Positions 3,234-36,692 of a stretch of DNA of 49,417 nt are shown here, piece after piece. The stretch comes from Thermoproteota archaeon (lineage in GTDB: Archaea > Korarchaeota > Korarchaeia > Korarchaeales > JAOZGB01). The translations under genes and the position numbers were made by a program. The stretch covers positions 1 to 49,417 of the forward strand of contig JAVCBU010000002.1 in the NCBI GenBank assembly GCA_037917685.1, given 5' to 3'. Position 1 is the first letter of the stretch; each line of letters opens with the position of its first letter. Under the pieces are notes generated by a model. That model did not search any database and was not told the DNA's origin. It was given only the letters and a program-made list of their open reading frames with translations.

Positions 3234-4019
3234 ATGGATATTATCGTTTGCGTTAAGCGTGTACCAGACGTCGCGGAGGCTGAGCTTGAAATAGATGAAA
3301 CACAGAAGGATATCAGGAAGGAGGGTCTAGCGTTTGACATAAATGAATGGGACAACTACGCAGTCGAGGAAGCCCTCCTGATCAAGGAGAACTACGGCGG
3401 CAATGTAACAGTAATTACGGTTGGACCAGAATCTTCAAATGAGGTTTTAAGAAAGTGTCTTGCTAAAGGGGCAGATGAAGCAATCCGCATCGACGATGGC
3501 GGGCTCAAAGGATATGATTCATACGCAGTTGCAAGGATGCTGTATCTAGCTATAAGAGATTTGGATTATGACCTTATTCTAACGGGGGCTATGTCAGGTG
3601 ACCTGGCATATTCGGTGACTGGGCCTGCACTGGCCCAGATGCTTGGAATACCGTATGCTACCCTTGTCAAGAAGGTTGAGTTGCAGAACGGCAGGCTTCT
3701 GGTGAACAGGGAGGTTGAGGGCGGGGTTGAAGAGGTCTTAGAACTAGAGCTCCCAGCCCTGCTTACCATCCAGACAGGGATAAATGAACCCAGGTATGTG
3801 TCGATAATGGGTATAAGGAGGGCTGCTAAAAAACAGATTCAGGTTAAAACCCTTGAGGATCTTGGCCTAGACAGGGAGAAAGCCTTGGAAGAGTCGTGGG
3901 TGAGGATAGAGAAGATGTATATACCAGTCATAAAGGCTGAAACTGAGTTTATCAGCGGAAGCCCTGAAGATGTAGCTTCAAAAATAGTTGGAATCCTCAG
4001 GGAGAGGGGGTTAGTATGA
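3234..4019 (+). CDS. etfB: Electron transfer flavoprotein beta subunit
   Basis: IIVCVKRVPD, INEWDNYAVEEA, REVEGG and INEPRY; GGTGG RBS before the ATG at 3234. Confidence 0.95.
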   Translation: MDIIVCVKRVPDVAEAELEIDETQKDIRKEGLAFDINEWDNYAVEEALLIKENYGGNVTVITVGPESSNEVLRKCLAKGADEAIRIDDGGLKGYDSYAVARMLYLAIRDLDYDLILTGAMSGDLAYSVTGPALAQMLGIPYATLVKKVELQNGRLLVNREVEGGVEEVLELELPALLTIQTGINEPRYVSIMGIRRAAKKQIQVKTLEDLGLDREKALEESWVRIEKMYIPVIKAETEFISGSPEDVASKIVGILRERGLV

Positions 4020-4996
4020 CCAGGATATTAGTGCTGGCCGAGCATAGGATGGGCGAGCTTAGAGACGTCAGTTTTGAACTCATAGGCTTCGCAAGACATA
4101 TAGAAGGACTGGAGAACCCCCAGGTTTCATGCCTCATAATCGGGTCAGATGTTAAAGGATACGCGGAGAAACTTGCAGAATACGCCGATAAGGTTATAAC
4201 AGTCCAAGATGAGAGTCTTCAAGGTTTCAACTCAGAATTCTACACTGCAGCCTTAAAACAGGTTATAGAGAGGGAGAAGCCCTTCCTTACACTAATAGGC
4301 CACACAGCTGTTGGCATGGAGCTAGCCCCGTGGACCGCTTCCAGCCTTGGAGTCCCACTTGCAACTGACTGTATTGGTGTAAAGTTTGAAGACGGCAAAA
4401 TAAAGGTGACCCGGCAGGTATACAGCGGAAAAATCAACATGGAAGCAACTTTGAAAGAGGCTGAATCCTACATTTTAACAATAAGACCTGGAACCTTCCC
4501 TGCTGAGGAGGTTGAACCTGTTAAAGGCACCGTGGAAGAGTTTAAGCTGGAACTGGGAGAAGCTAAACGGAAGAAATTCGTAAAATATGTAGAGCCGCCG
4601 AAGGGAGAAGTTGACATAGAAAAAGCCGAAGTTATAGTTGCAATAGGCCGCCCGGTAAGAGAGCCTGAACAACTGTCAGTTTTCGAAGAGCTCGCAAAGG
4701 CCCTAGGAGGCGTACTCGCATGCTCAAGACCCGTTGCCGACAAAGGCCTCCTACCTAAAGACAGGCAGGTCGGTAGTTCAGGCAAAACAGTCAAGCCTAA
4801 ACTATACCTGGCAATGGGTATAAGCGGCGCATTCCAGCATATACTCGGGATGAAAAATGCGAAACTTATAATTGCAGTTAATAAAGATCCTAAAGCACCA
4901 ATATTCAACGTTGCACATTACGGCATCGTCCAAGACATGTATAAGATGGCACCAGTGCTTAAAGAAGAGATTCAGAAGCTCAAACAGCAAGCATGA
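4016..4996 (+). CDS. etfA: Electron transfer flavoprotein alpha subunit
   Basis: ACSRP, QVGSSGKTV, GISGAFQH and AVNKDPKAPIF; ATGA-type 4-bp overlap with etfB. Confidence 0.95.
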   Translation: MTRILVLAEHRMGELRDVSFELIGFARHIEGLENPQVSCLIIGSDVKGYAEKLAEYADKVITVQDESLQGFNSEFYTAALKQVIEREKPFLTLIGHTAVGMELAPWTASSLGVPLATDCIGVKFEDGKIKVTRQVYSGKINMEATLKEAESYILTIRPGTFPAEEVEPVKGTVEEFKLELGEAKRKKFVKYVEPPKGEVDIEKAEVIVAIGRPVREPEQLSVFEELAKALGGVLACSRPVADKGLLPKDRQVGSSGKTVKPKLYLAMGISGAFQHILGMKNAKLIIAVNKDPKAPIFNVAHYGIVQDMYKMAPVLKEEIQKLKQQA

Positions 4997-5045
4997 GATC
5001 TACGCCTAACAGGGAAAGCCAAATTCATGAATTGGCGGTGATGGA

Positions 5046-6362
5046 TTGAAGCCTGTGCTCGTCATTGGCGGTGGGATATCAGGGATTCAGGCAGCATTAG
5101 ATCTTGCAGATCAAGGGGTAAAAGTATACCTTGTGGAAAGGTCGCCAAGCATAGGGGGAAGGATGGCTCAGATCGACAAGACCTTTCCAACACTTGACTG
5201 CGCCTCCTGCATCCTGACACCGAAAATGGTCTCTGTAGGAAGCCACAAAAACATAGAGCTATTAACCTACTCCGAGGTCAAAGAGATAAAGGGTCACGGA
5301 GGAAACTTTACTGTTAAAATCCTTAAAAAACCGAGGTACGTAGACATCGATAAGTGCACAGGGTGCGGAGAGTGCACCGTAAAATGTCCAAGCAAGGTTC
5401 CAGACGAGTACAATCTAAACATGAGCCTCAGAAAGGCGATATACATCCCGTTCCCCCAGGCAGTTCCTAGGAAGGCTGTTATCGACGCTGAACACTGTAT
5501 ACGGCTAAACCCACCTGAAAGACTCGCTGAAAGGGCGAGGGAAAGACCTTTGTGCGGAGTGTGCATGACGGTATGCCCGGCGAAAGCCGTAGACTTCAAC
5601 CAAAAACCTGAAACCCTAGAGGTGAACGTTGCATCAATAATAGTGGCGACAGGCCTAACGCTTGAGGACCCCTCGAGAAGGCCGGAGTACGGCTATGGGA
5701 GATACGCAAATGTCTATACACATCTAGAGTTTGAAAGGCTGCTATCCTCTACGGGGCCTACCGGAGGTGAAATCGTGAGAAGATCAGATGGGAAACACCC
5801 TAGAAGTATAGCTTTCATTCAGTGTGTGTGCTCGAGAGACGTTCAAACGAACAAGTACTGCAGTGCAATATGCTGTATGGCATCGACAAAGCAAGCAATA
5901 CTGGCGAAGGAGCACCTGCCAGATGTTGAGTGCACAATCTTCTATATGGACGTTAGAAGCTATGGAAAGGGATACCAGGAATTCGTAGAGAGGGCGAAAA
6001 GAGAGTTCAACATAAGGTATGTTAGGGGAAGGCCGGGGGAGATAGAGGAGGATCCCGGGACGAAAAACCTCATAGTGAGATATGAAAACACAATGAAGGG
6101 ATCCCTGGAGAAGCTAGAGGTGGAGATGGTAGTGCTGGCGGTGGGAGTTAAACCCGTAATCCCAGACATAGGTTTAGAGCTTGACGATGACGGATTTGTA
6201 AAGCTTGTAAAACCCTACTTCGACCCTACTGGTACAAGTATAGATGGCATTTACGTCTGCGGCGTTGCAGCGGGCGCAAAAGATATACCTGACTCAGTAA
6301 CACAGGCTGGAGTGGCAGCGGTTAAAGCCTCAATCCTGGCAGCAGGTGTCAAGGATGAGTGA
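5046..6362 (+). CDS. hdrA: Short HdrA-like FAD/Fe-S flavoprotein lacking the N-terminal and C-terminal Fe-S domains (QmoA-like size)
   Basis: VIGGGISG, GGRMAQIDKTFPTLDCASC, an inserted 2x[4Fe-4S] domain (CTGCGEC...CP, CGVCMTVCP), LEFERL, CVCSR and CSAICCM. Confidence 0.93.
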   Translation: MKPVLVIGGGISGIQAALDLADQGVKVYLVERSPSIGGRMAQIDKTFPTLDCASCILTPKMVSVGSHKNIELLTYSEVKEIKGHGGNFTVKILKKPRYVDIDKCTGCGECTVKCPSKVPDEYNLNMSLRKAIYIPFPQAVPRKAVIDAEHCIRLNPPERLAERARERPLCGVCMTVCPAKAVDFNQKPETLEVNVASIIVATGLTLEDPSRRPEYGYGRYANVYTHLEFERLLSSTGPTGGEIVRRSDGKHPRSIAFIQCVCSRDVQTNKYCSAICCMASTKQAILAKEHLPDVECTIFYMDVRSYGKGYQEFVERAKREFNIRYVRGRPGEIEEDPGTKNLIVRYENTMKGSLEKLEVEMVVLAVGVKPVIPDIGLELDDDGFVKLVKPYFDPTGTSIDGIYVCGVAAGAKDIPDSVTQAGVAAVKASILAAGVKDE

Positions 6363-8706
6363 GAAGCCCAGGATCGGAGTTTACGTGTGCCACTGTGGGC
6401 TAAACATAGCTGGCATCGTAGATGTAAAAGAAGTGGTGAAAGACGCCCTAAGCCTGGAGGACGTTGTTGTGGCAAGGGACTACATATTCATGTGCTCCGA
6501 CCCAGGCCAGGAGATGATTAAAAGGGACATATCTGAGAAAGGCTTGAACAGGATTGTGGTTGCAGCCTGTTCTCCATCAATGCATGAAACCACGTTTAGA
6601 CGGGTCCTAAGGGAGGCAGGGCTAAACCCATACCTCCTTGAGATAGCAAACATCAGAGAATGCTGCTCATGGGTTCACGACGATAAACATGCGGCAACAG
6701 AGAAAGCAAAGGACCTTGTAAGGATGTCAGTTGCAAAAGCTAGGCTCCTAGAGCCCCTAGAGGATATTGTTATGGACGTTAAACCCTCAGTCCTCGTACT
6801 TGGCGGCGGAGTATCAGGGATAACCGCAGCCCTGAACACGGCCAACCGAGGGTTCGACGTCTACCTTGTTGAAAAGTCTCCAACCCTAGGTGGAAATGCG
6901 GCGAGAGTAGGTTACCTTGTGGGCAAGGAGAGCAGAGGAATAGACGTTGTGAGGAAGCTAGTGGAAGTCGTAAAATCAAATCCGAGAATCCACGTATTTA
7001 CAAATTCAAAGCTTGAGTCCCTTGACGGTGCAGTTGGAAACTTTACAGCCCTGATAAAGGTAAGCCCACGATATGTTACAGGCGACTGCACCCTATGCGG
7101 AAAGTGCGCCGAGGTCTGCCCTGTAGAGGTTGAAAACGAGTACGAATATGGCCTTAACATGAGAAAGGCGATATATCTACCTTTCAAAGGAGCATACCCA
7201 GAGGCTTACGTAATAGATGGAGACGCGTGTACGATGTGCGGTAAATGCGTAGAGGTATGCCAGGCCAAGGCAATAGACCTCAAACAAGAGGCGTCTGAGA
7301 TAAAAGTGGAGGTTGGAGCTGTGATACTGGCAACAGGCTATAGCCCATATGAGCCTGCCCTGGCAGAGTACGGCTACAAGAAAGACAGCAGGGTTGTAAC
7401 ACTGTTCCAGCTTGAGAGAATGCTCGACGAAGAAGGGCCCACAGGCGGGGAGCTAAAGATAGGCGGAGAAGTACCCCGAAGAATAGCGTTTATCATGTGC
7501 GTCGGCTCCATGGGGACAACGGAGAAAGCAGCGGATTACTGTTCAAGAATGTGCTGTGGATCAGCCATTAGAAACATAGTTAGGATCAAAGAGAAATATC
7601 CAAAATCAGACATTTACGTTTTCTTCTGGAACATAGTAACCTACGAGAAGGGAGGGGAAGACCTCTACATCAAGGCATCCGAGCAGGGAGTAAAATTTGT
7701 CAGAGTGGAGGACCCGCCCAAGGTAAGCATGGAAGGAGGACTCACCGTAGAGGCCTACGACGTAACAATTCAGGAGAACCTCAAGGTACCGATAGATCTC
7801 CTGGTCCTTGTGAACGGCATGACCCCTCCAAGAGACCTAAAGGAGGTTTGCACGGTTACAAAGGCCAGCATCGGCCCGGATGGCTTCCTTAGAGAAGCAC
7901 ATCTTAAACTCAGACCTGTGGAGTCGCCTACAGACGGGGTGTTCCTGGCAGGCGCCGCTACAGGGCCGAAAAACATTATTGAAAGCATGACCGCAGGCGG
8001 GGCAGCCGCTTCAAAAGCGGCGTCACTACTGGCAACCGGGAAAGTAACTGTTGAACCTACCATCGCAACAGTTTCAGAGGAAGTATGCAGTGGATGCGGT
8101 ACATGCGTAAATGTTTGCTCGTTCAACGCAGTAGAGCTGGTTGTGAAGAATGGTAGGAGGATCTCCCATGTCGAAAGCCTTATGTGCAAGGGCTGCGGAG
8201 CCTGCGTTGCAGCATGCCCCTCAGGGGCAATGCAACAGCAGAAGTATACTGACCCCCAGCTCCTTGCAGAGGTTGATGTCCTAGAAGAACCCACGTACAA
8301 GCCTCTAATTCTAAGCTTCCTTTGCAGGTGGTGTGCATCCGCAGCAGCCGATCTAGCTGGAACCCTGCGAATCAAGTATCCGCCCTCGATACGGCCGGTA
8401 AGAGTTAACTGCTCAAGCAGGGTGGACCCTGCATACATTGTTAGGGCTCTCCTAGACGGTGTGGACGGAGTGCTTGTGGGAGCATGCCATCCGGGAGACT
8501 GCCACTACCTTGAAGGTAATCTGAAAGCTAGGCGTAGGATGGCTGTGATTAAAAACACACTTAAAACTCTTGGTTTAGAGCCTGAAAGGGTTAGATTTGA
8601 GTATATAAGCGCTTCAGAAGGTTCGAAATTCGCCAAGGTTGTTGAAGAGTTTACCGAGCAAATACGGAAACTTGGCCCTAACCCCATAGGAGGTGGTGAT
8701 ATTTGA
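6355..8706 (+). CDS. hdrA: HdrA-MvhD fusion protein (QmoB-like architecture)
   Basis: N-terminal CHCG...CS...ACSP...RECC domain, FAD motif GGGVSG, two ferredoxin domains and a C-terminal MvhD domain (FLCRWC, VNCSSRV, CHPGDCHY). Confidence 0.93.
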   Translation: MSEKPRIGVYVCHCGLNIAGIVDVKEVVKDALSLEDVVVARDYIFMCSDPGQEMIKRDISEKGLNRIVVAACSPSMHETTFRRVLREAGLNPYLLEIANIRECCSWVHDDKHAATEKAKDLVRMSVAKARLLEPLEDIVMDVKPSVLVLGGGVSGITAALNTANRGFDVYLVEKSPTLGGNAARVGYLVGKESRGIDVVRKLVEVVKSNPRIHVFTNSKLESLDGAVGNFTALIKVSPRYVTGDCTLCGKCAEVCPVEVENEYEYGLNMRKAIYLPFKGAYPEAYVIDGDACTMCGKCVEVCQAKAIDLKQEASEIKVEVGAVILATGYSPYEPALAEYGYKKDSRVVTLFQLERMLDEEGPTGGELKIGGEVPRRIAFIMCVGSMGTTEKAADYCSRMCCGSAIRNIVRIKEKYPKSDIYVFFWNIVTYEKGGEDLYIKASEQGVKFVRVEDPPKVSMEGGLTVEAYDVTIQENLKVPIDLLVLVNGMTPPRDLKEVCTVTKASIGPDGFLREAHLKLRPVESPTDGVFLAGAATGPKNIIESMTAGGAAASKAASLLATGKVTVEPTIATVSEEVCSGCGTCVNVCSFNAVELVVKNGRRISHVESLMCKGCGACVAACPSGAMQQQKYTDPQLLAEVDVLEEPTYKPLILSFLCRWCASAAADLAGTLRIKYPPSIRPVRVNCSSRVDPAYIVRALLDGVDGVLVGACHPGDCHYLEGNLKARRRMAVIKNTLKTLGLEPERVRFEYISASEGSKFAKVVEEFTEQIRKLGPNPIGGGDI

Positions 8707-9782
8707 AGAGAATACTTGTACCTGGAAGTGTTGATTCAGCCCTGAAAAACCTACTCTCTCAAATCCTTGACAGGGAGAGAGTAGACTACGTGCTATGTCT
8801 ATCACCTCAGGGTGAAGGCTTCACGATAAAACTCTACGGTAAAAATGAAGAGCTAGATATTGCACCTTTCGCCCCTGTCATCCCAGGCGTACCAATTCCC
8901 AAGATGCTTACTTGGGCTTCAAACCCGAAGGCTAGGGCGAAAGTACTGGCAATAGTTAAGCCGTGCATGGCCCGTGCGCTTGTGGAACTTGTGAAGTTTC
9001 AGCAGGTGGACCGGGAAAAAATTCTGATAGCCTCCGTTGACTGTCTAGGTACCATAGACGTTGAAAAATACAGGGAGCTGGCAGAGTCAGGTATGGAGAG
9101 GGGTAAAATAATAGAGAGATACAGGGGGGTAGAGATGCATGAAGACTATAGGGAAGCCTGCAAGATTTGCTTAAACCCTGTCCCACCATACTTTGACGTA
9201 CATTTCTCACCTTCCAGGGATGGACTATACGTGTACTTGGGCAGTGAGGAGGGCCTAAGCCTCATAAAGGACCTAGGCTATAAGCTAGGCGAAGGAGACC
9301 CATATGAACCCTTCAGAAGCCTATTAGAAGATAGAAGGAAGAATAGGAAACAATACCTCGATAACGTATCCTTTAATGGACTTGAAGATCTGGAGAAGTT
9401 GTTCGAGGAGTGTATAGGCTGCCACAACTGTATGGAGGCATGCCCCATATGTTTCTGTAAGGAATGCTTCTACGACTCTCCCCGGTATGACTACATCACC
9501 AGGAAATTCCTGGGTTGGAAGCCGGACTCTGGCACCGTTCATCTATTGGAGTCTAAAATACAGTTCCATATTGGTAGGGCTCTCCATATGTCAACTTCAT
9601 GCATCCAGTGCGGCCTTTGCGAACAGGCATGCCCAAACGACGTAAACCTGACAAGACTCTTCATATTGCTCTCGGAGAGCAACCAGGCACTATTCAACTA
9701 CCAGGCAGGGCGTAGCCTGGAGGAAGAGCCTCCGCTAACAACGTTCCAGACCGATGAGCTGGAAATGTTCGTAGGTGGTTAA
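8703..9782 (+). CDS. FdhB/FrhB-like (F420 dehydrogenase beta subunit-like) iron-sulfur protein
   Basis: KPCMARALVEL...DCLGT, REACKIC, CIGCHNCMEACPICFCKEC and CIQCGLCEQACP. Confidence 0.85.
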   Translation: MKRILVPGSVDSALKNLLSQILDRERVDYVLCLSPQGEGFTIKLYGKNEELDIAPFAPVIPGVPIPKMLTWASNPKARAKVLAIVKPCMARALVELVKFQQVDREKILIASVDCLGTIDVEKYRELAESGMERGKIIERYRGVEMHEDYREACKICLNPVPPYFDVHFSPSRDGLYVYLGSEEGLSLIKDLGYKLGEGDPYEPFRSLLEDRRKNRKQYLDNVSFNGLEDLEKLFEECIGCHNCMEACPICFCKECFYDSPRYDYITRKFLGWKPDSGTVHLLESKIQFHIGRALHMSTSCIQCGLCEQACPNDVNLTRLFILLSESNQALFNYQAGRSLEEEPPLTTFQTDELEMFVGG

Positions 9783-9783
9783 T

Positions 9784-10989
9784 ATGAACTTAAAGGGGGA
9801 AGAATTAGAAAACCTTTTGATCTGTGGATGGTGCGGTCAGTGCATAGTTGACTGTCCAGTCTTCAAAACTTCGGGGAACACGAGGCACCTACCCCTCTTT
9901 AAGAGCCGCCTCTTCAGGAGAGTATACGAGGCTGAACAAGGAATAATATACAAGATAGGTGGTGAGGGAAGCCTCGGCATACTTCAAAACCTATCCGACG
10001 AGGCTAACATGGTATATGAATGCACACTGTGCGGCGCTTGCACTGAGAACTGCAAGTACGACATAAAACCACACACCCTCTGGTATAGGCTTAGAGAATA
10101 CCTGAACAGTAAAGGATACAATCCAGACCCCCTGAAAGCTGTGGAGGAAAACTTTAGACGCTCCGGAAACCCCTACGGATTGTCACCCTCAGCTAGAAAG
10201 TTCTGGCTCAGGAAGGCTTCCAGGAAGTATAGGATACCGGTTGGAAAGGCTAAAACAATATACTTTATAGGCTGTACGACCTCGGCGAAGGCCGTTAACA
10301 GGCCTACAGCTGAGTCGCTCTTCGGCATACTGAACTCCGCAGGGGTTGACTGGGCAATCCTAGGCTTTGAAGAACCGTGCTGTGGCGCCCCGCTAGAAAT
10401 GATAGGGTCCACGGAGATGGCTAGAGAGCAGGCGGAAAAAGTGGTCCAAGCATTGGAGTCTGCAGGCGCCGAAACAGTTATAACCTCCTGCCCAACATGC
10501 TATAGGGAGCTATCGGTTGAGTATGAGAGGACCCTAGGCTACAAACCCAGCTTCAACGTAGTCCCAGCTGTCACGTACATCCTAAAATTGTTGGATGAAG
10601 GTTTAATAAGCCTCGAGCCAGGCCAGCCTGAGAAGATAGCCTATCATGACCCATGTGAGCTTTCAAGGCATACCGACGTAATAGATGAGCCGCGGAAACT
10701 TTTAGAAAGGATGGGCTACCAACTTACAGAACCGGAATACTCGGGTAGGAAAACATTTTGCTGTGGAGGGGGAGGTATGCTTAAAGCTCAAAATAACAGT
10801 TTGAGCATTAAAGTCGCAACCGTAAGGGTGAACCAGCTGTTAAAGAACGGAGTCGTCATAATCTCTACAGCTTGCCCTTCATGCAAAGCCTCCCTAAAGG
10901 AAGCAGAGGCCTCCATTGGTGAAGCAAAAGTCTATGATATCGTCGAGCTCGCTGCAGAAAGAATCATCCGGAAGGGTGAAAAGGCGTGA
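9784..10989 (+). CDS. HdrD/GlpC-like Fe-S oxidoreductase (2x[4Fe-4S] plus two CCG domains)
   Basis: CGWCGQC..CP, CTLCGAC..C, GC...CCG...CPTC and HDPC...CCGGGG...CPSC. Confidence 0.92.
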   Translation: MNLKGEELENLLICGWCGQCIVDCPVFKTSGNTRHLPLFKSRLFRRVYEAEQGIIYKIGGEGSLGILQNLSDEANMVYECTLCGACTENCKYDIKPHTLWYRLREYLNSKGYNPDPLKAVEENFRRSGNPYGLSPSARKFWLRKASRKYRIPVGKAKTIYFIGCTTSAKAVNRPTAESLFGILNSAGVDWAILGFEEPCCGAPLEMIGSTEMAREQAEKVVQALESAGAETVITSCPTCYRELSVEYERTLGYKPSFNVVPAVTYILKLLDEGLISLEPGQPEKIAYHDPCELSRHTDVIDEPRKLLERMGYQLTEPEYSGRKTFCCGGGGMLKAQNNSLSIKVATVRVNQLLKNGVVIISTACPSCKASLKEAEASIGEAKVYDIVELAAERIIRKGEKA

Positions 10990-12116
10990 GCAAACTCCTT
11001 AGAATTGTCAAGGAATGCGATGCAATCTTGTGCATGGAATGCGGCACATGCGTTGGCTCCTGCCCCCTCTCAGAGAAGTCAGCCATGAACTTTAGGAAGA
11101 CAGTTGCAAGAATAGTCCTCGGCCTGGAAAAATCAGTCTCAGGCAGGAGCGAGTTCTGGGACTGCACAACCTGTAGCACGTGCAAGGTTAGATGCCCAAG
11201 AGGCGTGAAAACCGTAGACCTAATCATAGAGTTCAGGAAGAACATGATAGAATATGGAAGAATACCGCCAATGATAAGAGACGCGCTTGAAAACGTCTAT
11301 AAGCATGGAAACCCATGGGGAAGAAGCCGTATGAAAAGAGGGGAATGGGCTGAAGGTCTTCCCGTCAGGAAGGCTGGCGAAGAACCTGTAAGAAACATTC
11401 TCTTCACATGCTGCAGCTCTGCCTATGACAGCAGGGCCCAGGAGTCAACTAGGGCGCTGGCAAAAATACTCACTGATCAACAGATAGAATTTGGAATACT
11501 AGCGGAAAAGGAGACATGCTGTGGAAACGAAGTTTACAACATGGGGGAGGAAGGCCTATTCGAACTACTCATGGAGGAAAACGTGGAGAACCTTAACAAG
11601 TACGCGGGAGAAACGATAATAACAACATCCCCCCACTGCTATAACACATTCAAGAATAGATACCATGGGCTGAAAAAGGATGTGAAACACTACACACAGC
11701 TCCTTACAGAGCTTATCGACCAGGGCAAGATAAGATTCGACAAGAGACTGGAGCTTACAGTAACCTATCACGACCCATGTTACCTGGGAAGGTACAATGG
11801 AATATTGGAAGAACCCCGGAAGATAATAGAAAGCATCCCAGGCGTGAAACTCGTGGAAATGGACAGGAACAAGATGAACAGCCTATGCTGTGAGGGAGGA
11901 GGGGGGAGAATGTGGTATGACGGGCCGCCAGGTCCGAGGACTGCGGAGAGAAGGGTGGCTGAAGCATTAAACACAGGGGCTGAACTGCTCATAACCACAT
12001 GCCCATTCTGCCTGGCAACACTAGAGGACGCTGTGAAAGTGGTAGGAGCCGAGGACAAGCTTAAGGTTACAGACCTAGCCGAACTGCTATGCACCGCCCT
12101 AAACTTATCAATGTAA
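10986..12116 (+). CDS. Second HdrD/GlpC-like Fe-S oxidoreductase
   Basis: CMECGTC..CP, CTTCSTC..CP, CCG...SPHC and YHDPCYLGR...CCEGGGG...CPFC. Confidence 0.92.
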   Translation: MSKLLRIVKECDAILCMECGTCVGSCPLSEKSAMNFRKTVARIVLGLEKSVSGRSEFWDCTTCSTCKVRCPRGVKTVDLIIEFRKNMIEYGRIPPMIRDALENVYKHGNPWGRSRMKRGEWAEGLPVRKAGEEPVRNILFTCCSSAYDSRAQESTRALAKILTDQQIEFGILAEKETCCGNEVYNMGEEGLFELLMEENVENLNKYAGETIITTSPHCYNTFKNRYHGLKKDVKHYTQLLTELIDQGKIRFDKRLELTVTYHDPCYLGRYNGILEEPRKIIESIPGVKLVEMDRNKMNSLCCEGGGGRMWYDGPPGPRTAERRVAEALNTGAELLITTCPFCLATLEDAVKVVGAEDKLKVTDLAELLCTALNLSM

Positions 12117-12922
12117 ATTTTACTACTTTATAGCCCGTGAATCTGAGCCCTCACAACCCACCAACTACTTTATTGTTTACTAACTCGCTCTACCCGTCTA
12201 ACAATAACCTACATTGTGAGCATTGCAGATATAGTTCTCCATCCACATATGTGAAAAGGACATTGAGCAATCTTTGTCGCATATATTCTCTTATCACATG
12301 CACCCTATTAGTCACCACCGTCCCAGCTCTGTTATGGCATTCTCATTTGCAGTTATGTCAAGGCTTATTGGGATGATTATTCTTGGCGTCTCAATCTCAG
12401 GAGAGTCGAGAACCAATTATGGCAGAGCGCGGTGGAGTAGGGGGTGACGCGCGCGAATACTGTAAAGGCGAGTAGGAAGCCTAAGTGGAGCAGCGTTCCC
12501 TGACACTTCGGACGCGGCCTTCTAAGGGTTAAAGACGGGTTTAGGGCTATCACACGTAGATTGTAGGAGGCAAATACTAGTTGCAGATACCTTCAACCAT
12601 TATTGGTTATTCACCGGTTTTACAGGATAAGGGAGTTAAAGACATCTTCCTGATGACCTATCCGTCAGGCTGGCGTGATGCCTTATATAACTATCAGGTT
12701 TAGGCTTCCGCATTCTCCCTTAGTTTCAGTCTCAACTCCTCTAGCTGCTCCAAAGCTTCTGGGGTTAGCATCCCTTACTTCGAGAGAGTCTGTTTCCTCT
12801 GCTGGGTGGATTTGGTGTTGTCAAGTTTGCTGGGAAGGATATTTGAAGAGTAGCTGTTTAAGAGATGGGTAGAAATTGTGGAGGAGGAAAAGGTGGGTGA
12901 CAGAGCAGTTGAGATGGCTATT

Positions 12923-14602
12923 TTACTCTTTCAGTTTACGCCTCAACACCTTCCCTACTATGGTTGTCGGTAGCTCATCCTTGAATTCGACCTGTTTTGG
13001 AATCTTATACTTGGCTAGTTTGCCCTTGCAGTGTTCTATTATCTCTTCTGGTTTAACCTTCCCCTTATACTCGTCTTTTAGGACTACGAAAGCCTTCGGA
13101 ACCTCGCCGTAGTACTCGTCTTTCACACCTACTACTGCCGCCATCTTCACTGCTGGATGGGTGTAGATGACCTCCTCAACCTCTCTAGGCCAGACTTTCA
13201 AGCCTCCAACGTTAATCATGTCCTTCTTCCTGTCAACGATGTGGAAGTAGCCGTCCTCATCCATGTATGCCACGTCGCCCGTGTATAGCCAGCCGTTCCT
13301 GAAGGTTTTAGCCGTCTCCTCTGGCATGTTCCAGTAGCCTTTGCCCACCTGTGGGCCTTTGACGACGAGTTCTCCCGGCTCGCCCGGCTTCATCTCTTTC
13401 TCACCCTTCTCCAGATCCATGATCTTAGCGTCTGTGTCAGGTACTGGTATGCCTATCGAGCCATACCTGACCTTTGATAGGTCGTCCAGCGGGTTCACAT
13501 GAGTCACAGGCGAGGCCTCGCTGAGGCCGTATCCCTCAACAATCATGCCTCCCGTTATTTCTCTCCATCTCTTAGCAACCTCTACAGGTAGGGCCATGGC
13601 CCCGGCAATGCAGGACTTTATACTTTTCATATGCTGCTTGTACTTAGGCATTTCAGGGTGGTTCATCAGGGCTATGTACATTGTTGCCACTGCTGGGAAG
13701 TGAGTGGGCTTATACTTCTTGACGGCTTCGAACACCATTTTAGGATCAAACTTCGGCAGTACTATTACTGTACAGTTTGTGAAGGGTGTCACATTCATGG
13801 TTACGGTCATACCATAGACGTGGAACCATGGGAGAACAGCCAGCGAGACGCTGTCCTCATTTACATAGCCTACTAGCTTTGTCTGTATTGCGTTAACGGC
13901 AAGGTTAAAGTGGGTTAGCATCGCACCCTTTGGAATACCTGTTGTTCCACCTGTGTACATAAGTATGGCTAGGTCCTCCATGGGGTTTATCTCAACTTTC
14001 TTCTCAAGCGGTGGGCCCTTAACCATATCTTTAAACTGTAATGCTTCCCCGGCTGGGATCTTCGGGGGCTTAAACTTAACCAGCCTTGCTATAAATCCGA
14101 GCAGGGTGGGCATGTACTCGGTTAGGTTTGTAACTATGATGTGCTTAACACTCGTGTTATCTTTTATAGCCTTAATCCTACTATACACCATGTCAAGGAC
14201 AACCGCTATCTTTGCGCCGCTATCCTTGAGGACGTGTTCAAGCTCCTTTTCGGTGTAGAGCGGGTTAACAGGGACAACGACACCGCCGACTTTAAGGATG
14301 CCATAGTAGGCTATCATAAACTGTGGGGTATTCGGCAGAACTACTGCTACTCTATCTCCCTTCTCAAGTCCTAGTTTTGACAGGGCACCGGCGAATCTGC
14401 TTGTAAGGTCAACCATCTGCCTGTAGGTTATCTTCCTACCGAAGAAGATTAGCAAAGGCTTGTCAGGCGTCTTTTTCGCTGCTTCCTCCAAAGCCTCGTG
14501 AAGGGTTATGACAGGATACTCCACAGACTTGGGCACGCCCTTAGGCCAAAACTTAAACCAGGGTCTATCTGGCGGGACAGGCTCGCTCTTAAATGTTTTC
14601 AC
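12923..14602 (-). CDS. fadD: Long-chain fatty acid-CoA ligase (AMP-forming)
   Basis: YTGGTTGIPKG, EGYGLSE, GWLYTGD, DRKKDMI and a terminal GKVLRR. Confidence 0.93.
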   Translation of the reverse strand: MKTFKSEPVPPDRPWFKFWPKGVPKSVEYPVITLHEALEEAAKKTPDKPLLIFFGRKITYRQMVDLTSRFAGALSKLGLEKGDRVAVVLPNTPQFMIAYYGILKVGGVVVPVNPLYTEKELEHVLKDSGAKIAVVLDMVYSRIKAIKDNTSVKHIIVTNLTEYMPTLLGFIARLVKFKPPKIPAGEALQFKDMVKGPPLEKKVEINPMEDLAILMYTGGTTGIPKGAMLTHFNLAVNAIQTKLVGYVNEDSVSLAVLPWFHVYGMTVTMNVTPFTNCTVIVLPKFDPKMVFEAVKKYKPTHFPAVATMYIALMNHPEMPKYKQHMKSIKSCIAGAMALPVEVAKRWREITGGMIVEGYGLSEASPVTHVNPLDDLSKVRYGSIGIPVPDTDAKIMDLEKGEKEMKPGEPGELVVKGPQVGKGYWNMPEETAKTFRNGWLYTGDVAYMDEDGYFHIVDRKKDMINVGGLKVWPREVEEVIYTHPAVKMAAVVGVKDEYYGEVPKAFVVLKDEYKGKVKPEEIIEHCKGKLAKYKIPKQVEFKDELPTTIVGKVLRRKLKE

Positions 14603-14632
14603 CTTAATCCCGTCAAGTCCAACCTGGAATGC

Positions 14633-14646
14633 TTTATAAACTTTCC
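14633..14646 (-). promoter_or_regulatory. Archaeal BRE-TATA promoter for the acyl-CoA ligase
   Basis: Minus strand reads GGAAAG-TTTATAAA about 31 bp upstream of the GTG start. Confidence 0.55.
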
Positions 14647-14665
14647 TTATTTGCCGTGTATACTC

Positions 14666-15202
14666 CTAATAATCGATTCCCCTGCGCCTGGCCAGGCCTT
14701 CCCGGTATGGGTGCTTAACCTCACGCATAAATGTGACAAGGTCCGCTGCCTTTATTATCTCAGCTGGGGCGTATCTTCCTGTAAGCACGAGCTCAACGTG
14801 TTTTGGTTTACTCCGTATGAGATCTAGGACTTCATTAACGGATATGAGATTGAAGTCCACTGCGACGTTAACCTCGTCTAGGATAACCACGTCGTATTCC
14901 CCGCTCATAACCACTTGTCTTGCGTGTTCGATTGCCGCCTTGGCAGCATCGATGTCCTCTTTCTTCGGGTTTGATGGATTTACAAGCTCAGGTCTCCCGA
15001 ACTGTACAATCTTGAAGTTTGGCAGGTGCTCTATAGCCCGGTGCTCTCCGTAAGTAACTCCACCCTTCATAAACTGAATCATGTAAACCTTCAGTCCATG
15101 CCCCACGGCTCTAAGCCCCAGGCCTAACGCCGCGGTGGTTTTGCCCTTGCCGTCACCCGTATAGACGTGTACAATCCCCTTTTTAAGCCTAGGCTTCTGC
15201 AT
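14666..15202 (-). CDS. cobO: Cob(I)alamin adenosyltransferase, CobA/CobO/BtuR type
   Basis: VYTGDGKGKTTAA, QFMKG, ILDE, LVLTGR and KHPY...RRGIDY. Confidence 0.95.
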   Translation of the reverse strand: MQKPRLKKGIVHVYTGDGKGKTTAALGLGLRAVGHGLKVYMIQFMKGGVTYGEHRAIEHLPNFKIVQFGRPELVNPSNPKKEDIDAAKAAIEHARQVVMSGEYDVVILDEVNVAVDFNLISVNEVLDLIRSKPKHVELVLTGRYAPAEIIKAADLVTFMREVKHPYREGLARRRGIDY

Positions 15203-15205
15203 GTC

Positions 15206-16219
15206 CTAACCCTTCACCTTATTAAGGAAATCACTTAGGATCATATCAGCAGCGGTGTACGGGTCTATCCTTCTTTCTCCAACCTTTCTAATGAGCTTGT
15301 TAAAACTATCGTCTTTCGTTACTGACTTTAAAATGATCTCTTCTAATCTTCCTCTGAGGGCCTCCAGTACCTCCTGTCTCGCCCATCTCTCGATGTACTC
15401 ATTGAATTTTGTCCGCCTTAGAAATCTACGGTGTTCTTCTATCTTATCTACAAGTTCTTTTACCCCGGTGTTCATGATTGCAGAGGTTTTAACGACGGGA
15501 GGTATCCAGCCAGACATGCCGGAACGAATTGTTGGGGACATGTTGAGCATATCTTCCAGCTGCAAGGCTGTCTCATCAGCGTCCTCACGGTCAGACTTGT
15601 TAACAACAAATATGTCCCCTATCTCTATTATGCCGGCTTTTAACGTTTGAATCTCGTCTCCAAGCCCTGGGCAGAGAACCACGAGGATTGTATGAGCCAC
15701 CCTCATTATGTCAACCTCCGACTGGCCTGCACCAACGGTTTCCACAACCACAACTTCCTTGCCTGAGGCATCTAGGATTTTAACAGCATCCCTTGTCGCC
15801 CTGGAAATGCCGCCGAGGTTTCCCCTGGTAGCCATGCTTCTAATAAAGACCCCTTCGTCGCCGGTTAAATCCTGCATCCTAATTCTGTCACCTAGAAGCG
15901 CCCCACCTGTAAACGGGCTGGAAGGGTCAACAGCCAACACTCCAACCGTTTTCCCCAGTTTTCTCCATTCCTTAACCATTTTATGGACAAGTGTGCTCTT
16001 CCCACTACCCGGGGGGCCTGTTACACCGACAACGTGGGCGTTACCAGTACTGGGATAAATAAGTGAAACTATCCTACGGGCTACCGAAGCATCGTTTTCA
16101 GCCATGCTTATAAGCCTTGCTGTGGCAAACTTGTCCCCCCTTAAGAGTCTTTCAACGAGCTCTTCCAGGTTATACTTCACTTTCATCTTCAGTTCATCTC
16201 TACCGTTTCCTCTTAACAT
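15206..16219 (-). CDS. meaB: Acyl-CoA mutase-associated GTPase chaperone MeaB (start may be near 16186)
   Basis: [37 protein letters not shown] and NKSD. Confidence 0.95.
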
Positions 16220-16616
16220 TTCTCCTAATATACTCGATGATGTCCTTCAGCGGGGAGCCGGGGCCGAAGATCTCAGCTATCCCAGCCTTTTTAAGCGCCG
16301 GAATATCTTCAGTTGGGATTATTCCCCCGGCGATCACTAAAACATCATTAATCCCCCTCTCCCTCAGCAGCTCCACGACCCTGGGTAGCAGGGTCATGTG
16401 GGCACCCGACAAGATGCTGAGTCCGATAACATCCACGTCTTCCTGAATCGCTGTCTCCACAATCTGTTCAGGCGTCTGCCTGAGCCCTGTATATATAACC
16501 TCCATGCCTGCATCTCTTAACGCTCTTGCAATGACCTTCGCCCCCCTGTCATGGCCGTTGAGGCCGGGTTTAGCTATCAAAACCTTAATCTTTCTCTCCT
16601 CTCCGCTCATGGCCAT
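16200..16616 (-). CDS. Acyl-CoA mutase small (cobalamin-binding) subunit
   Basis: [12 protein letters not shown] (variant of DxHxxG), [14 protein letters not shown] and FGPG. Confidence 0.95.
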
Positions 16617-16618
16617 CC

Positions 16619-18310
16619 CTAAAATATTATTAGCTCCTGGTATTCTCCATACACCTCCTTTAAAACACCCATTATCTCCCCTATCGTGGCGTAGGCTTTA
16701 ACAGCATTTAACACATACGGCATTATATTCTCATCCCTTTCAGCAGCCTTTCTCAAACTTTCCAGCGTTCGTTTAACCCTGTCGCTGTTCCTCTGCTCTT
16801 TTACCCTTTTTAGACGCTCCAGCTGCACCCTTACAACCTCGGGGTCCACCCTGAGGAGTGGAATCTCAAGCTTCTCGTTTTCGTCTACATACTTGTTTAC
16901 CCCAACTATTACTCTCCTGCCTTCTTCAACCTCTCTTTGGAACCTATAGGAGCTCTCTGCAATCTCCCTCTGCGGGAACCCCCTCTTTACAGCCTCTATC
17001 ATTCCCCCCATACCATCAATCCTGTCAATGTACTTCATGGCTTCCTCCTCCATCCTGTCTGTTAGCCACTCAACGTAGTAGGAGCCGGCAAGCGGGTCGA
17101 CAACGTTGGCGACGCCGCTCTCATAAGCTATTATCTGCTGGGTTCTAAGAGCTATCCTTACAGCTTTCTCCGAGGGTAAAGCCCAAGCCTCATCCATACT
17201 GTTTGTATGCAGAGACTGTGTCCCGCCAAGGACAGCTGCTAAAGCCTGAATTGTAACCCTTATAATATTATTCTCGGGCTGCTGAGCTGTTAGCGCTACA
17301 CCAGAGGTTTGAGTGTGAAATCTAAGCCACATAGATCTCTCCTTTTTGGCCCCGAACCTTTCCTTCATGATCCTGGCCCACATCCGCCTTGCTGCCCTAA
17401 ACTTAGCTATCTCCTCAAAGAAGTCATTGTGGGATGCAAAGAAGAATGATAATCTATGGGCAAACTCGTCTACACCGAGTCCCCTCTTGAGCATGGCCTC
17501 AACATACGCTATTCCATCTGCAATGGTGAACGCCAGCTCCTGAACAGCCGTTGCTCCAGCCTCCCTAATATGATACCCAGATATGCTTATCGGGTTCCAC
17601 TTTGGCATATACTTGACACAGAACTCTATAACGTCTGTTGTAAGCTTGACAGCTGGCTCAGGTGGGAATACATATGACTTCTGCGCTATAAACTCTTTTA
17701 AAGCGTCGTTCTGAACTGTGCCGCCAAGTTTCTCCATGGGAACCCCCTGCTTCTCACCCACCGCGATATACATAGACAGCAGGACCGGGGTCGGAGCGTT
17801 TATCGTCATAGAAGTCGTCACCCTGTCTAGGGGTATGCCGTCAAATATTACCTCCATGTCCGCAAGGGTGTCAACAGCGACGCCACATATGCCAATCTCG
17901 TTGACAGCCATCGGATGGTCTGAGTCAAGCCCTATAATAGTGGGAAAGTCGAATGCGACGCTAAGGCCGGTTTCTCCCTCCTCGAGCAGATACTTAAACC
18001 TCTGGTTCGTCTGCTCAGCAGTACCATAGCCAGCGAACTGCCTCATCGTCCAAATACGGCCACGGTACATCGTTGCATGTATGCCCCTGGTAAACGGATA
18101 CTCGCCTGGAAGCCCTAAATCCTTGAAATAATCCATACGTTCCACGTCCAACGGAGTATATACACGCTTCACAGGTATGCCGGATGACGTTTTGAACTCA
18201 GCCATCCTCTCAGGATGTCTTTCTAAGTCCTTCTTGACACGTTCCTCCTCCCACCTGTTAATCCTATCCTTAAGACTACGGATTAATTCATCTTTAAACA
18301 AGGATATCAC
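16619..18310 (-). CDS. Acyl-CoA mutase large (substrate-binding) subunit, isobutyryl-CoA/2-hydroxyisobutyryl-CoA mutase-like
   Basis: [16 protein letters not shown] (Phe92), [11 protein letters not shown] (Gln210), [11 protein letters not shown] and QSLHTN. Confidence 0.93.
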
Positions 18311-27396: not shown

Positions 27397-27427
27397 AACG
27401 TCACCTCTACTCATCCTTAAACATAAC

Positions 27428-27475: not shown

Positions 27476-27928
27476 CTAAGTATCTTGAATGTTTGTAGGG
27501 GTAAATATGTATCTAACTCTACCCTCCGGTGTCACTTCAGCGTGGAGCTTTACCTTTAACCCTACCTTTATATCTTTTTTCTTTGCTCCAACCAGCCATG
27601 CAAGAACTCTTACTCCCTCCTTTAACCTTGCGATTGCAACAGTGTATGGTCTCTCATCCTGGAAGCTTGCAGGCCTGACAATGACATGGGTGAATGTCTC
27701 TATTTCTCCCTCACCGCTCAGCTCTGTCCACCCCATGTCTGATGTCAGACATGAAGGACAGTCCGGGGATGGTGGAAAATATATTTTCCCACATTGCTTG
27801 CATTTTGTTGCATAGACCTTCCCCTCTTTTAGTCCCTCCCAGAACTTTAGTGTTTTATTTATGGGAATATTGTAGGTTATGTTTAGGGGTCTCGACTTTA
27901 AGGTTGGCATCTCACTCATGTCTCTCAC
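27476..27928 (-). CDS. DUF35 Zn-ribbon/OB-fold protein (thiolase partner)
   Basis: FWEGL..GK, CKQCG..YFPP..DCPSC, then an OB-fold; overlaps the thiolase stop. Confidence 0.92.
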   Translation of the reverse strand: MRDMSEMPTLKSRPLNITYNIPINKTLKFWEGLKEGKVYATKCKQCGKIYFPPSPDCPSCLTSDMGWTELSGEGEIETFTHVIVRPASFQDERPYTVAIARLKEGVRVLAWLVGAKKKDIKVGLKVKLHAEVTPEGRVRYIFTPTNIQDT

Positions 27929-29100: not shown

Positions 29101-29200
29101 CTGTTTCTTTGAGATTTATTATCTCCACGACATTCACGTTTTTGAATTATTTTATATCTAACCTTTGCCGATGTCCTATCACAGGTGGAGGTGTTGGAAA

Positions 29201-33665: not shown

Positions 33666-33774
33666 GAAACCTCAATTGATGGAGCATAATTCAGTATGTA
33701 AGCCTCACGGTTAAAATGGACAATTGATATGTATGATACATTAACAATCTTTTTATGAGGGAACTACTGCTCTA

Positions 33775-36688: not shown

Positions 36689-36692
36689 AGCT

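Follow-up and report, generated by a model that had tools for sequence, protein, structure and literature searches.

Electrons from acyl-CoA dehydrogenases have known outlets in membrane enzymes (the electron-transferring flavoprotein (ETF):quinone oxidoreductase ETF-QO, EtfD/EMO and FixCX) or in Bcd/Etf bifurcation. A different arrangement appears on a contig of a Thermoproteota archaeon of the Korarchaeota (assembly GCA_037917685.1, contig JAVCBU010000002.1), where a set of beta-oxidation genes is accompanied by an operon of seven genes at 3234–12116 on the + strand, encoding ETF together with HdrA-, MvhD-, FdhB- and HdrD-like proteins. The 49,417-bp contig, labeled C4 and analyzed at its entire length, is called the window below; it belongs to a genome of 1.81 Mb in 22 contigs, 95% complete, with 4823 open reading frames (ORFs). 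How could such an operon handle electrons that elsewhere pass to a membrane? We propose that it encodes a soluble, ETF-coupled, HdrA-type flavin-based electron-bifurcating or -confurcating oxidoreductase, and from the homologies, motifs and gene neighborhoods described here we estimate the probability of this reading at about 50%.

The operon and its gene products

The operon comprises the following features:

3234–4019, + strand: etfB, small (beta) subunit of ETF (ATG at 3234; the longest ORF opens at GTG 3210)
4016–4996, + strand: etfA, large (alpha) subunit of ETF, without an N-terminal ferredoxin domain
5046–6362, + strand: short HdrA, 438 amino acids (aa), candidate bifurcating protomer
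6355–8706, + strand: HdrA-MvhD fusion (ATG; a GTG lies at 6346, and the protein has 786 aa if counted from it)
8308–8676, + strand: MvhD [2Fe-2S] adaptor domain, C-terminus of the HdrA fusion, residues 655–777
8703–9782, + strand: FdhB/ElpB-like iron-sulfur subunit, 359 aa
9784–10989, + strand: HdrD1, soluble fusion of HdrC and HdrB type (ATG; a GTG lies at 9775)
10986–12116, + strand: HdrD2, soluble iron-sulfur protein of EtfD/EMO type

The ORF listing and a check of the sequence agree with the initial annotation that these seven genes are all co-directional and overlap or abut one another, with junctions at 4016/4019, 6355/6362, 8703/8706, 9782/9784 and 10986/10989. The sole real intergenic gap, of 49 nt (4997–5045), separates etfA from the short HdrA gene. 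A bacterial-type scan, which carries little weight for an archaeon, found no terminator-like site on the + strand of the operon, and the GC content of 0.476–0.500 is similar to that of the remaining window. The earlier description of the proteins as lacking membrane helices was also borne out, since none was detected in any of the seven: the Kyte-Doolittle maximum over 19-residue windows is 1.61, compared with 2.84 for a permease from the same window used as a control. A Pfam scan of the 34 further window ORFs of at least 120 aa returned no HdrB/HdrC, hydrogenase, FdhA or Apr, and it recovered the full beta-oxidation set that had been annotated there, namely acyl-CoA dehydrogenase, enoyl-CoA hydratase, 3-hydroxyacyl-CoA dehydrogenase and thiolase with a DUF35-like partner. 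However, the genome beyond the window does contain two hdrCB pairs and a [NiFe] hydrogenase, as well as a second ETF.

A proposed asymmetric pair of HdrA proteins

Both HdrA proteins match the NCBIfam HdrA2 model (NF040770), the fusion at 5.6e-272 over positions 1–774 of 777 and the short one at 1.3e-163 over model positions 140–560, with scores for the pair (904 and 546 bits) that fall under the model cut-off of 1100. Aligned to 5odc_A, the short protein covers residues 146–565 (465 bits) and the long one residues 2–647 (648 bits). The short HdrA consists of a thioredoxin-reductase-like flavin adenine dinucleotide (FAD) core with an inserted 2x[4Fe-4S] ferredoxin domain and lacks the N- and C-terminal HdrA domains, while the long HdrA has the N-terminal cluster domain and the C-terminal ferredoxin domain (mobile arm); neither gene alone encodes a complete canonical HdrA. 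The CxGSR...CSxxCC block, which holds the HA4 cysteines, is present in both. The MvhD domain of the fusion is matched over all 123 of 123 profile positions of PF02662 (4.7e-52, 175.6 bits) and gives 162 bits with 7bkb_F.

The two proteins differ most clearly around the flavin. Lys409 of the 5ODC HdrA is described as contacting N5 of the FAD (PMC6405883). The short HdrA retains Lys at this position (5ODC numbering) together with the FPTLDCxxC pair, whereas the fusion has Arg there and has lost the DCxxC pair. The Cys pair, for which we presume a role at the bifurcating flavin, is kept in 14 of 19 aligned HdrA-like sequences and the Lys in 17; the five without the pair are the window fusion, the C-terminal half of a fusion protein on contig C22, and three bacterial partner subunits of 561–581 aa. 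Because only the short protein keeps Lys409 and the Cys pair, and only the long one has the arm domains and MvhD, the two genes look like halves of an asymmetric dimer, the short half having a working flavin without the arm and the long half having the arm and a degenerate flavin site. Moreover, the central genes look interdependent: the short HdrA lacks the MvhD-carrying domains and so would need the long partner, which itself lacks the flavin-site signature.

A related protein is found elsewhere in the genome. On contig C22 (45380–53557; locus L090, 5381–13557), a 1149-aa fusion joins a canonical short HdrA to a degenerate HdrA-MvhD that has no Cys pair and carries Arg in place of Lys409. 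Downstream of it come hdrC, hdrB, a true FrhB (PF04422 and PF04432), a GXGXG protein and a GltB-like protein. As judged by its domains and motifs, the C22 protein naturally unites in one chain what the window encodes in two HdrA genes, tied there to a genuine F420 subunit.

The placement of a short HdrA beside an HdrA-MvhD fusion also resembles the QmoA/QmoB pair. A Qmo-like module for sulfur metabolism is nevertheless highly improbable, and we rejected it: the operon has no QmoC-type membrane subunit, such a module would leave the ETF and the ElpB-like gene without a function, and in the 95% complete genome AprA gave nothing above threshold and DsrA was not found (no control genome exceeded either cut-off).

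The FdhB/ElpB-like subunit

The 359-aa protein encoded after the fusion contains 2x[4Fe-4S] and matches FrhB_FdhB_C (PF04432) with 22.1 bits, just under the cut-off of 23.3; PF04422 was undetected in it by the Pfam scan. An AlphaFold2 model built from 23 sequences (pLDDT 85.9, pTM 0.87) was aligned with VIA-align to 7bkb_E with Z 31.4 (334 residues, 3.6 Å) and to 8rvu_E with Z 30.9 (330 residues), and FrhB chains scored about 16. The family profile gives the same picture against solved structures (9t1s_M, 2.3e-52; 8rvu_E, 9.7e-46; 7bkb_E, 6.8e-44), and 15 cysteines are invariant in the family alignment. On the predicted fold, the protein is homologous over its whole length to FdhB/ElpB, the subunits that dock on Hdr.

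This family is large, with 413 proteins in a word-indexed search and at least 591 confirmed loci in a genome scan. We fetched 80 loci and scored 79, and among the 70 with room upstream of the ElpB-like gene all but one (69) have an MvhD gene or domain directly in front of it, which argues that docking of the ElpB-like protein on MvhD/HdrA is very likely conserved. Among the loci listed, the nearest public ones are labeled 'Thermoproteota archaeon' metagenome-assembled genome (MAG). ElpB and FdhB are described as oxidizing F420H2 at an FAD, from which electrons travel via their own clusters, the N-terminal clusters of HdrA and the MvhD-type ElpC to the bifurcating FAD (PMC12350162). The source genome encodes CdhC, Mtd, CofE and two true FrhB-type genes, and has two loci with antiporter-like subunits; from the presence of CofE, Mtd, CdhC and the FrhB-type genes it follows that the organism uses F420 and the archaeal C1 pathway. 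In an F420-containing archaeon, the carrier at the ElpB-like subunit would most likely be F420, with NAD(P)H as the alternative. McrA was not found in the 95% complete genome, and the reading of the organism as a methanogen or alkane-oxidizer was rejected on this ground.

Contig C2 carries a paralogous hdrC-hdrB-hdrA-mvhD-ElpB-like cluster (33311–38982; locus L089, 5312–10983), whose ElpB-like protein is 53% identical to that of the window. The HdrD1-like gene of this cluster appears broken: two ORFs of 234 and 111 aa remain, the part between them is absent, and one cluster motif has Tyr where a Cys is expected. It may be a pseudogene or an assembly error.

HdrD1 and HdrD2 are not equivalent

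Each of the two HdrD-like proteins contains Fer4_8 and two CCG domains according to Pfam. HdrD1 (PF02754, 3.2e-29) has two complete CX(n)CCX(n)CXXC motifs, formed by Cys 167/202/203/239/242 and 294/329/330/367/370. HdrD2 differs from this pattern. Its closest solved relative is 9ojn_A (EtfD, residues 405–748; E 2.3e-58, 201 bits), and HdrC and HdrB are far weaker matches, with 68 and 34 bits. The protein of 9OJN is described as EtfD, which carries electrons from ETF to menaquinone (PMC13083937). HdrD2 residues C265/C301/C302/C339/C342 align to EtfD Cys637/672/673/709/712, so all five ligands of cluster D2 are kept. At the first CCG site, HdrD2 has C143, C178, C179 and C218, with Ser replacing EtfD Cys581; the D1 site thus retains three of the four EtfD ligands plus the second Cys of the CC pair, and only the second CX(n)CCX(n)CXXC motif (265–342) is complete.

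Neither protein has a hydrophobic segment, and HdrD2 also has no C-terminal extension, while relatives of 657–715 aa carry three to seven such segments. By its alignment, HdrD2 is a soluble counterpart of mycobacterial EtfD, corresponding to the soluble part of that protein; we do not class it as EtfD/EMO because the membrane domain that reduces (methyl)menaquinone is missing. BLASTP found no membrane-bearing HdrD/EMO homologue among the 4823 ORFs of the genome, and no ETF-QO domain was found in the 95% complete assembly. The two HdrD-like proteins are non-equivalent subunits, HdrD1 resembling a disulfide reductase and HdrD2 resembling EtfD, and HdrD2 is presumed to be the subunit at which ETF docks and electrons enter or leave. 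A tree of HdrD-like proteins was built by a quick method from 63 rows, of which four come from the source genome, 45 were taken from the 80 soluble-type proteins and the other 14 are the complete membrane-type set. HdrD2 falls among 23 proteins that are all soluble (support 97), and the neighboring clade consists of 13 proteins of membrane type (97). The partner of HdrD1 in the tree (support 100) is the HdrD encoded downstream of the ElpB-like gene in locus L009, and HdrD1 and HdrD2 fall in separate, well-supported clades.

The soluble HdrD2 family is also large: when 8000 proteins were scored, at least 6549 of them reached E<=1e-30. We found 79 metagenome loci by HdrD2 alignment and counted partners anywhere in the locus: 32 have ETF, 37 have HdrA-like genes, 13 have both, 13 have acyl-CoA dehydrogenase and four have ElpB-like genes. 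Because many of these contigs are short, a stricter count took only loci flanked on each side by 2.5 kb or more, searching within 3 kb. Of the 25 well-flanked soluble loci, 8 have ETF and 17 have HdrA; at least one of the two is present in 19, and 6 have both. The five well-flanked membrane-type loci have ETF in four and HdrA in one. In a wider count, ETF genes lie no more than 3 kb away for 20 of 66 relatives of soluble type and for 8 of 12 of membrane type. In loci L125 and L159, the gene directly after HdrD2-etfB-etfA encodes an acyl-CoA dehydrogenase that shares 68% identity with the window enzyme at 29165–30352. In two relatives from the same taxonomic order, at loci L207 (G036) and L208 (G035), a 657–658-aa HdrD2 homologue with about five N-terminal hydrophobic segments adjoins EtfAB; this is the membrane EMO/EtfD type, which the source genome appears to lack.

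These features allow another reading, in which the high-potential substrate is a thiol/disulfide at HdrD1 and ETF/HdrD2 share a disulfide pool, the coupling being through a diffusible or protein-bound disulfide instead of direct docking. HdrD1 keeps both motifs, which are HdrB-type non-cubane cluster sites, and HdrD2 keeps its complete second motif. In addition, 8 of the 25 well-flanked soluble HdrD2 loci are without HdrA and 6 are without both ETF and HdrA; since HdrA is not nearby, HdrD2 must have another partner there. The genome also retains two hdrCB pairs though McrA was not found. Nevertheless, the operon encodes no candidate carrier, the equivalent pockets of EtfD and BamD are described as occluded and as serving ETF electron transfer (PMC13083937; bioRxiv 10.64898/2026.04.10.717634), and passing electrons from ETF to a disulfide would be uphill, as is the confurcating direction discussed below. 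We consider this reading rather improbable and retain HdrD2 as the candidate docking site of ETF.

The type of ETF

EtfB matches PF01012 at 1.4e-41, and EtfA matches PF01012 (2.7e-37) and PF00766 (ETF_alpha, 1.5e-32). The closest solved relatives of EtfB are 1o94_C (183 bits), which we take to be the non-bifurcating W3A1 ETF, and then CarD 6fah_B (146 bits); those of EtfA are 5ol2_A from C. difficile (225 bits) and 1o94_D (197 bits). In an EtfB tree of 42 rows, the window protein lies in a clade of 30 (support 100/99) that holds 19 ETFs encoded beside soluble HdrD2 genes, four beside membrane EMO-type genes, and the acyl-CoA-dehydrogenase-linked ETFs of genomes G001–G003. The second EtfB of the genome, partner of an EtfA with a ferredoxin domain, falls in the opposite clade (100/99). 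The tree placement weakly suggests that the window ETF is of the ordinary non-bifurcating type, the affinities to solved structures being mixed.

If the ETF were instead of the bifurcating, NADH-using FixABCX/EtfABCX type, HdrD2 and the HdrA pair would replace FixCX or quinone as its high-potential outlet. The proximity of EtfA to the bifurcating C. difficile protein and the second place of CarD for EtfB could be taken in this sense, and the top NCBIfam matches of the ETF include acryloyl-CoA reductase ETF subunits. However, EtfB is nearest to 1o94_C, it groups with EMO-type- and acyl-CoA-dehydrogenase-linked ETFs and apart from the ferredoxin-domain-linked EtfB, and the operon already holds a canonical bifurcating flavin in HdrA. 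This alternative appears very unlikely to us, and the ETF is treated below as a putatively non-bifurcating partner of HdrD2.

The second ETF is encoded on contig C14 (131354–143642; locus L091). Its EtfA, of 400 aa, bears the N-terminal ferredoxin domain, and its genes are divergent from a four-gene [NiFe] hydrogenase resembling group 3b and lie 6 kb from another acyl-CoA dehydrogenase.

One complex or two systems

Gene neighborhoods bear directly on whether the seven genes form one complex. The parts list of ETF, HdrD, HdrA, MvhD and ElpB-like protein comes together in 5 of the 79 ElpB-like loci, which belong to two bacterial phyla: Thermodesulfobacteriota (L016, L043) and, through Anaerolineae, a second one (L048, L054, L061). 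Within the phylum, 43 species genomes were compared, including the source genome; eight have ElpB-like genes, and HdrD2 relatives of at least 42% identity and EtfA relatives of at least 44% are confined to G001–G003. In G002, the neighbors of the ETF genes encode acyl-CoA dehydrogenase and hydratase, and an HdrA-MvhD-ElpB-like-HdrD2 set is 40 kb away. Relatives of window proteins at 86% identity do exist (P0001, P0122). The exact seven-gene order was seen in no other genome examined, so synteny does not extend to the whole operon; what is conserved is the sub-modules and their repeated joining.

These distributions could mean that two separate systems share one transcript with no direct electron path between them, namely an ETF:HdrD2 pair, perhaps with the short HdrA, and an HdrA-MvhD/ElpB-like/HdrD1 disulfide reductase like the C2 cluster. 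Several observations fit such a division. ETF accompanies the ElpB-like gene in 5 of 79 loci and the ElpB-like gene accompanies HdrD2 in 4 of 79; MAG loci labeled 'Thermoproteota archaeon' (L009, L010, L013) and genomes G001 and G002 have HdrA-MvhD-ElpB-like-HdrD without ETF; loci L125, L126, L139 and L159 have HdrD2-etfBA-acyl-CoA dehydrogenase without HdrA; and HdrD1 and HdrD2 belong to different clades. Conversely, the genes overlap or abut with no terminator-like site between them (the scan again counting for little), the short and long HdrA look interdependent, each having what the other lacks (flavin signature versus MvhD-carrying domains), soluble HdrD2 genes have HdrA nearby in 17 of 25 well-flanked loci, and the full parts list recurs in five bacterial loci. 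We regard two independent systems as unlikely, and a single complex is assumed in what follows.

Proposed mechanism

From homology we infer that the proteins form a complex, which path the electrons take, which carrier the ElpB-like subunit uses and what HdrD1 does. In the proposed complex, the short HdrA and the HdrA-MvhD fusion would form a heterodimer replacing the HdrA homodimer, with a bifurcation-competent FAD only in the short protomer. The ElpB/FdhB-like subunit would be the mid-potential port, exchanging hydride with F420H2/F420 or NAD(P)H, and its electrons would reach the FAD of the short HdrA by way of the subunit's own Fe-S clusters, those at the N-terminus of the long HdrA, and the [2Fe-2S] cluster of the fused MvhD. 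From this flavin, one electron would exit through the inserted ferredoxin domain to ferredoxin, the low-potential port, and the other would go via an HdrD-like subunit to ETF, docked on HdrD2 and exchanging electrons with acyl-CoA dehydrogenase, the high-potential port. HdrD1 could provide a second high-potential branch or a disulfide site. The net reaction would be 2 F420H2 (or NAD(P)H) + Fd(ox) + enoyl-CoA <-> 2 F420 + Fd(red) + acyl-CoA, and the complex would be a functional HdrA-based counterpart of clostridial Bcd-EtfAB that needs neither quinone nor membrane. In its most specific form, that of an archaeal, F420-dependent, HdrA-based Bcd-EtfAB equivalent in which one soluble complex with an asymmetric HdrA heterodimer couples acyl-CoA/enoyl-CoA to ferredoxin and F420, the proposal is tentative.

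The wiring has an experimental precedent in class II benzoyl-CoA reductase, in which ETF binds an HdrD-like subunit of an HdrA-type enzyme. As described in the preprint, BamE is a fused HdrA dimer in which one FAD, the Lys-bearing one, bifurcates and the other does not; BamF serves as MvhD adaptor, and the ETF (BamOP) binds the HdrD-like BamD (bioRxiv 10.64898/2026.04.10.717634). The operon shares with BamDEF-ETF, in the terms of that description, an HdrA pair with one presumed bifurcating and one non-bifurcating flavin, an MvhD-type adaptor and an HdrD-like subunit that has an altered distal non-cubane site and is the presumed dock for ETF. In contrast to BamDEF, it has an ElpB-like input, no BamBC tungsten or BamGHI NADH/ferredoxin module, an HdrA pair encoded by two genes, and two HdrD-like subunits. 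The likeness is drawn from the paper's description, and no Bam chain was among the solved-structure matches; it is limited to the BamDEF-ETF logic, since none of the 41 window ORFs scanned contains a BamB domain of tungsten AOR type or BamGHI domains.

The initial annotation had sketched a similar scheme, parts of which now need to be narrowed. It let ETF electrons enter through the HdrD-like subunits; this fits HdrD2, given its EtfD likeness, its relatives beside etfBA and the BamD precedent, but not HdrD1, which resembles a disulfide reductase. Likewise, the branching point that it placed at HdrA suits the short protein, which keeps Lys409 and the Cys pair, and not the fusion, which has lost both. 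Its assignment of MvhD and the FdhB-like subunit as input/output adaptors, here the third port, is strengthened by the full-length FdhB/ElpB match and by the conserved upstream position of MvhD (69 of 70 loci). F420, which it named beside another carrier for the FdhB-like subunit, is favored by the F420 genes of the genome, but is weakened by the missing glycine motif and the frequency of the family in bacteria, as considered next.

Evidence against the proposal and the direction of the reaction

A number of observations weigh against the proposed complex. The affinities of the ETF are mixed between bifurcating and ordinary types, with EtfA nearest to the bifurcating C. difficile EtfA and EtfB nearest to 1o94_C, and the ETF on contig C14 could possibly provide an alternative Bcd/Etf- or CarCDE-like route that competes with the operon. 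The modules mostly occur apart, ETF being found with ElpB-like genes in only 5 of 79 loci and ElpB-like genes with HdrD2 in only 4 of 79; the seven-gene arrangement is present in 0 of the 42 other phylum genomes, and the ETF genes of G001–G003 do not adjoin Hdr genes. HdrD1 has two complete CCG motifs, so that a thiol/disulfide could be the true high-potential couple.

The ElpB-like subunit raises a further difficulty. Across its family, no position ahead of P58 is invariant, and variable residues stand opposite 'CGGAVT', the N-terminal glycine motif of FdhB/ElpB. Because PF04422 is undetected, PF04432 is below threshold and the glycine stretch is not conserved, the flavin/F420 site of this subunit may be altered or lost. 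The family is also common in bacteria (Chloroflexota, Thermodesulfobacteriota, Cloacimonadota, Clostridia), and most of these phyla are not known to make or use F420. With the glycine motif missing and the family abundant in bacteria, F420 use at this port is something that we infer rather than observe.

Energetics constrain the direction. The potential of F420 is −340 mV, and alternative values for the acyl-CoA couple and for ferredoxin are −10 mV and −500 mV. Published values are −125 mV for butyryl-CoA/crotonyl-CoA (PMC7082340) and about −450 mV for ferredoxin. From both sets, we estimate that at standard state about +20 to +33 kJ per acyl-CoA must be spent to run the complex in the confurcating direction, that of beta-oxidation, which is a further point against a sink; this direction would require a strongly oxidized F420 pool. 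The bifurcating direction, in which enoyl-CoA reduction gives reduced ferredoxin, is downhill in the same estimate. In class II benzoyl-CoA reductase, ETF is described as the high-potential acceptor (bioRxiv 10.64898/2026.04.10.717634). Since the beta-oxidation direction is endergonic and ETF is an acceptor in the only characterized analogue, the reverse of a beta-oxidation sink appears at least as likely by analogy. The initial annotation had allowed for a confurcating sink or its reverse; the sink has become harder to support, and the reverse now stands at least level with it.

Comparison with known systems

The operon is not identical to any characterized Hdr or Flx complex; its parts are known and their combination appears to be new. 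This conclusion comes from comparison with known systems and from a literature search, in which the full texts gave no description of a soluble etfBA-hdrA-hdrA/mvhD-fdhB-like-hdrD cluster, although supplementary MAG gene tables may mention related clusters.

The ElpABC-HdrABC and FdhAB-MvhD-HdrABC complexes of methanogens (8RVU, 7BKB; PMC12350162) share with the operon an FdhB/ElpB-type subunit, MvhD and an HdrA that keeps its N-terminal domain. Unlike them, the operon has no ElpA/FdhA or HdrB/HdrC and has two HdrD fusions and ETF instead; the HdrA homodimer is exchanged for a short canonical and a long degenerate protomer, the glycine stretch near the N-terminus of FdhB/ElpB has no conserved counterpart, and the genome yielded no McrA. 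HdrA2B2C2 of Methanosarcina acetivorans, listed as the F420H2-dependent Hdr2 (PMC6085437), resembles the operon through the HdrA2 model (an HdrA-MvhD fusion), which is the top NCBIfam model for both window HdrA proteins; however, the scores lie under the cut-off, HdrB2C2 is lacking in the window, and ETF, ElpB-like and HdrD genes are added.

EtfD of mycobacteria (9OJN), EMO/DUF224 of syntrophs and HdrF3-etfBA of Desulfobacterium autotrophicum all have an HdrC+HdrB-like domain encoded beside etfBA. The membrane versions are in print, HdrF3-etfBA in PMC2702500, EtfD in PMC13083937 and EMO/DUF224 as well, whereas HdrD2 is devoid of a membrane domain and probably works with HdrA, not with quinone. 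With Bcd-EtfAB and CarCDE, the operon would share its chemistry, in which a mid-potential hydride donor is coupled to ferredoxin and, via ETF, to enoyl-CoA/acyl-CoA; the bifurcating flavin would reside in HdrA and not in EtfB, the donor may be F420H2 and not NADH, and a separate CarDE-like ETF is encoded on C14. Bacterial FdhB-MvhD-HdrABC, HdrL-MvhD-FdhB and FlxABCD-HdrABC clusters, discussed in published text as uncharacterized candidate bifurcating complexes, have the same ElpB-like family directly after mvhD. HdrBC is present in those clusters, frequently together with NAD(P)H modules of HdrL or Flx type, and 74 of the 79 loci have no ETF.

The remaining window

The genes of acyl-CoA metabolism outside the operon are located as follows:

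29165–30352, + strand: acyl-CoA dehydrogenase with three Acyl-CoA_dh domains, the presumed redox partner of the ETF
26206–27414, − strand; 27476–29100, − strand; 30404–31192, + strand: neighboring beta-oxidation genes
12923–14602, − strand: acyl-CoA synthetase

The acyl-CoA synthetase belongs to a block at 12923–18310 on the opposite strand, adjoining the operon, which continues with an ATP:corrinoid adenosyltransferase, a MeaB GTPase, and the B12-binding small subunit and large subunit of a mutase, and is a methylmalonyl-CoA or isobutyryl-CoA mutase set. The 806 bp between the operon and this block (12117–12922) contain no convincing ORF. No Rfam family reached the gathering threshold in the window; in this gap there were only two chance-level snoRNA-like matches (E 0.44 and 0.93), and its predicted fold is no better than that of shuffled sequences (z −0.41). 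A sigma-70-type scan returned 9 promoter-like sites against 9.7 expected, the bacterial model being uninformative for an archaeon.

Amid the acyl-CoA genes, an 830-aa protein of the penicillin-amidase family (PF01804, 8.7e-197) is encoded at 18560–21052 (+). At 31876–34000 the GC content falls, to 0.403 in the bin 32001–34000, around an ORF with no Pfam match (32682–33665); the dip also spans the start of a CBM96/disaggregatase-repeat protein (33775–36039). At 48300–49164 (−), the gene of a Polbeta-type nucleotidyltransferase overlaps that of a HepT-like RNase, and the two resemble an MNT/HepT toxin-antitoxin pair.

Significance

If the proposed function is correct, the operon would represent a third solution for the electrons of acyl-CoA dehydrogenases, which are hard ones to place in anaerobic fatty-acid metabolism, using a soluble complex in which ETF is connected with an HdrA flavin, ferredoxin and F420 or NAD(P)H. 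Neither quinones nor a membrane step would then be needed for beta-oxidation or its reversal. The ETF-on-HdrD logic of benzoyl-CoA reductase would be extended to ordinary acyl-CoA metabolism and to archaea. As the operon is compact, with seven genes and no membrane part, the idea is open to heterologous anaerobic expression. A function would also be provided for two large and mostly unannotated families, the ElpB-like proteins and soluble HdrD2, and the widespread metagenomic sets of soluble HdrD2-etfBA, with or without acyl-CoA dehydrogenase or hdrA, would be simpler versions of the same principle.

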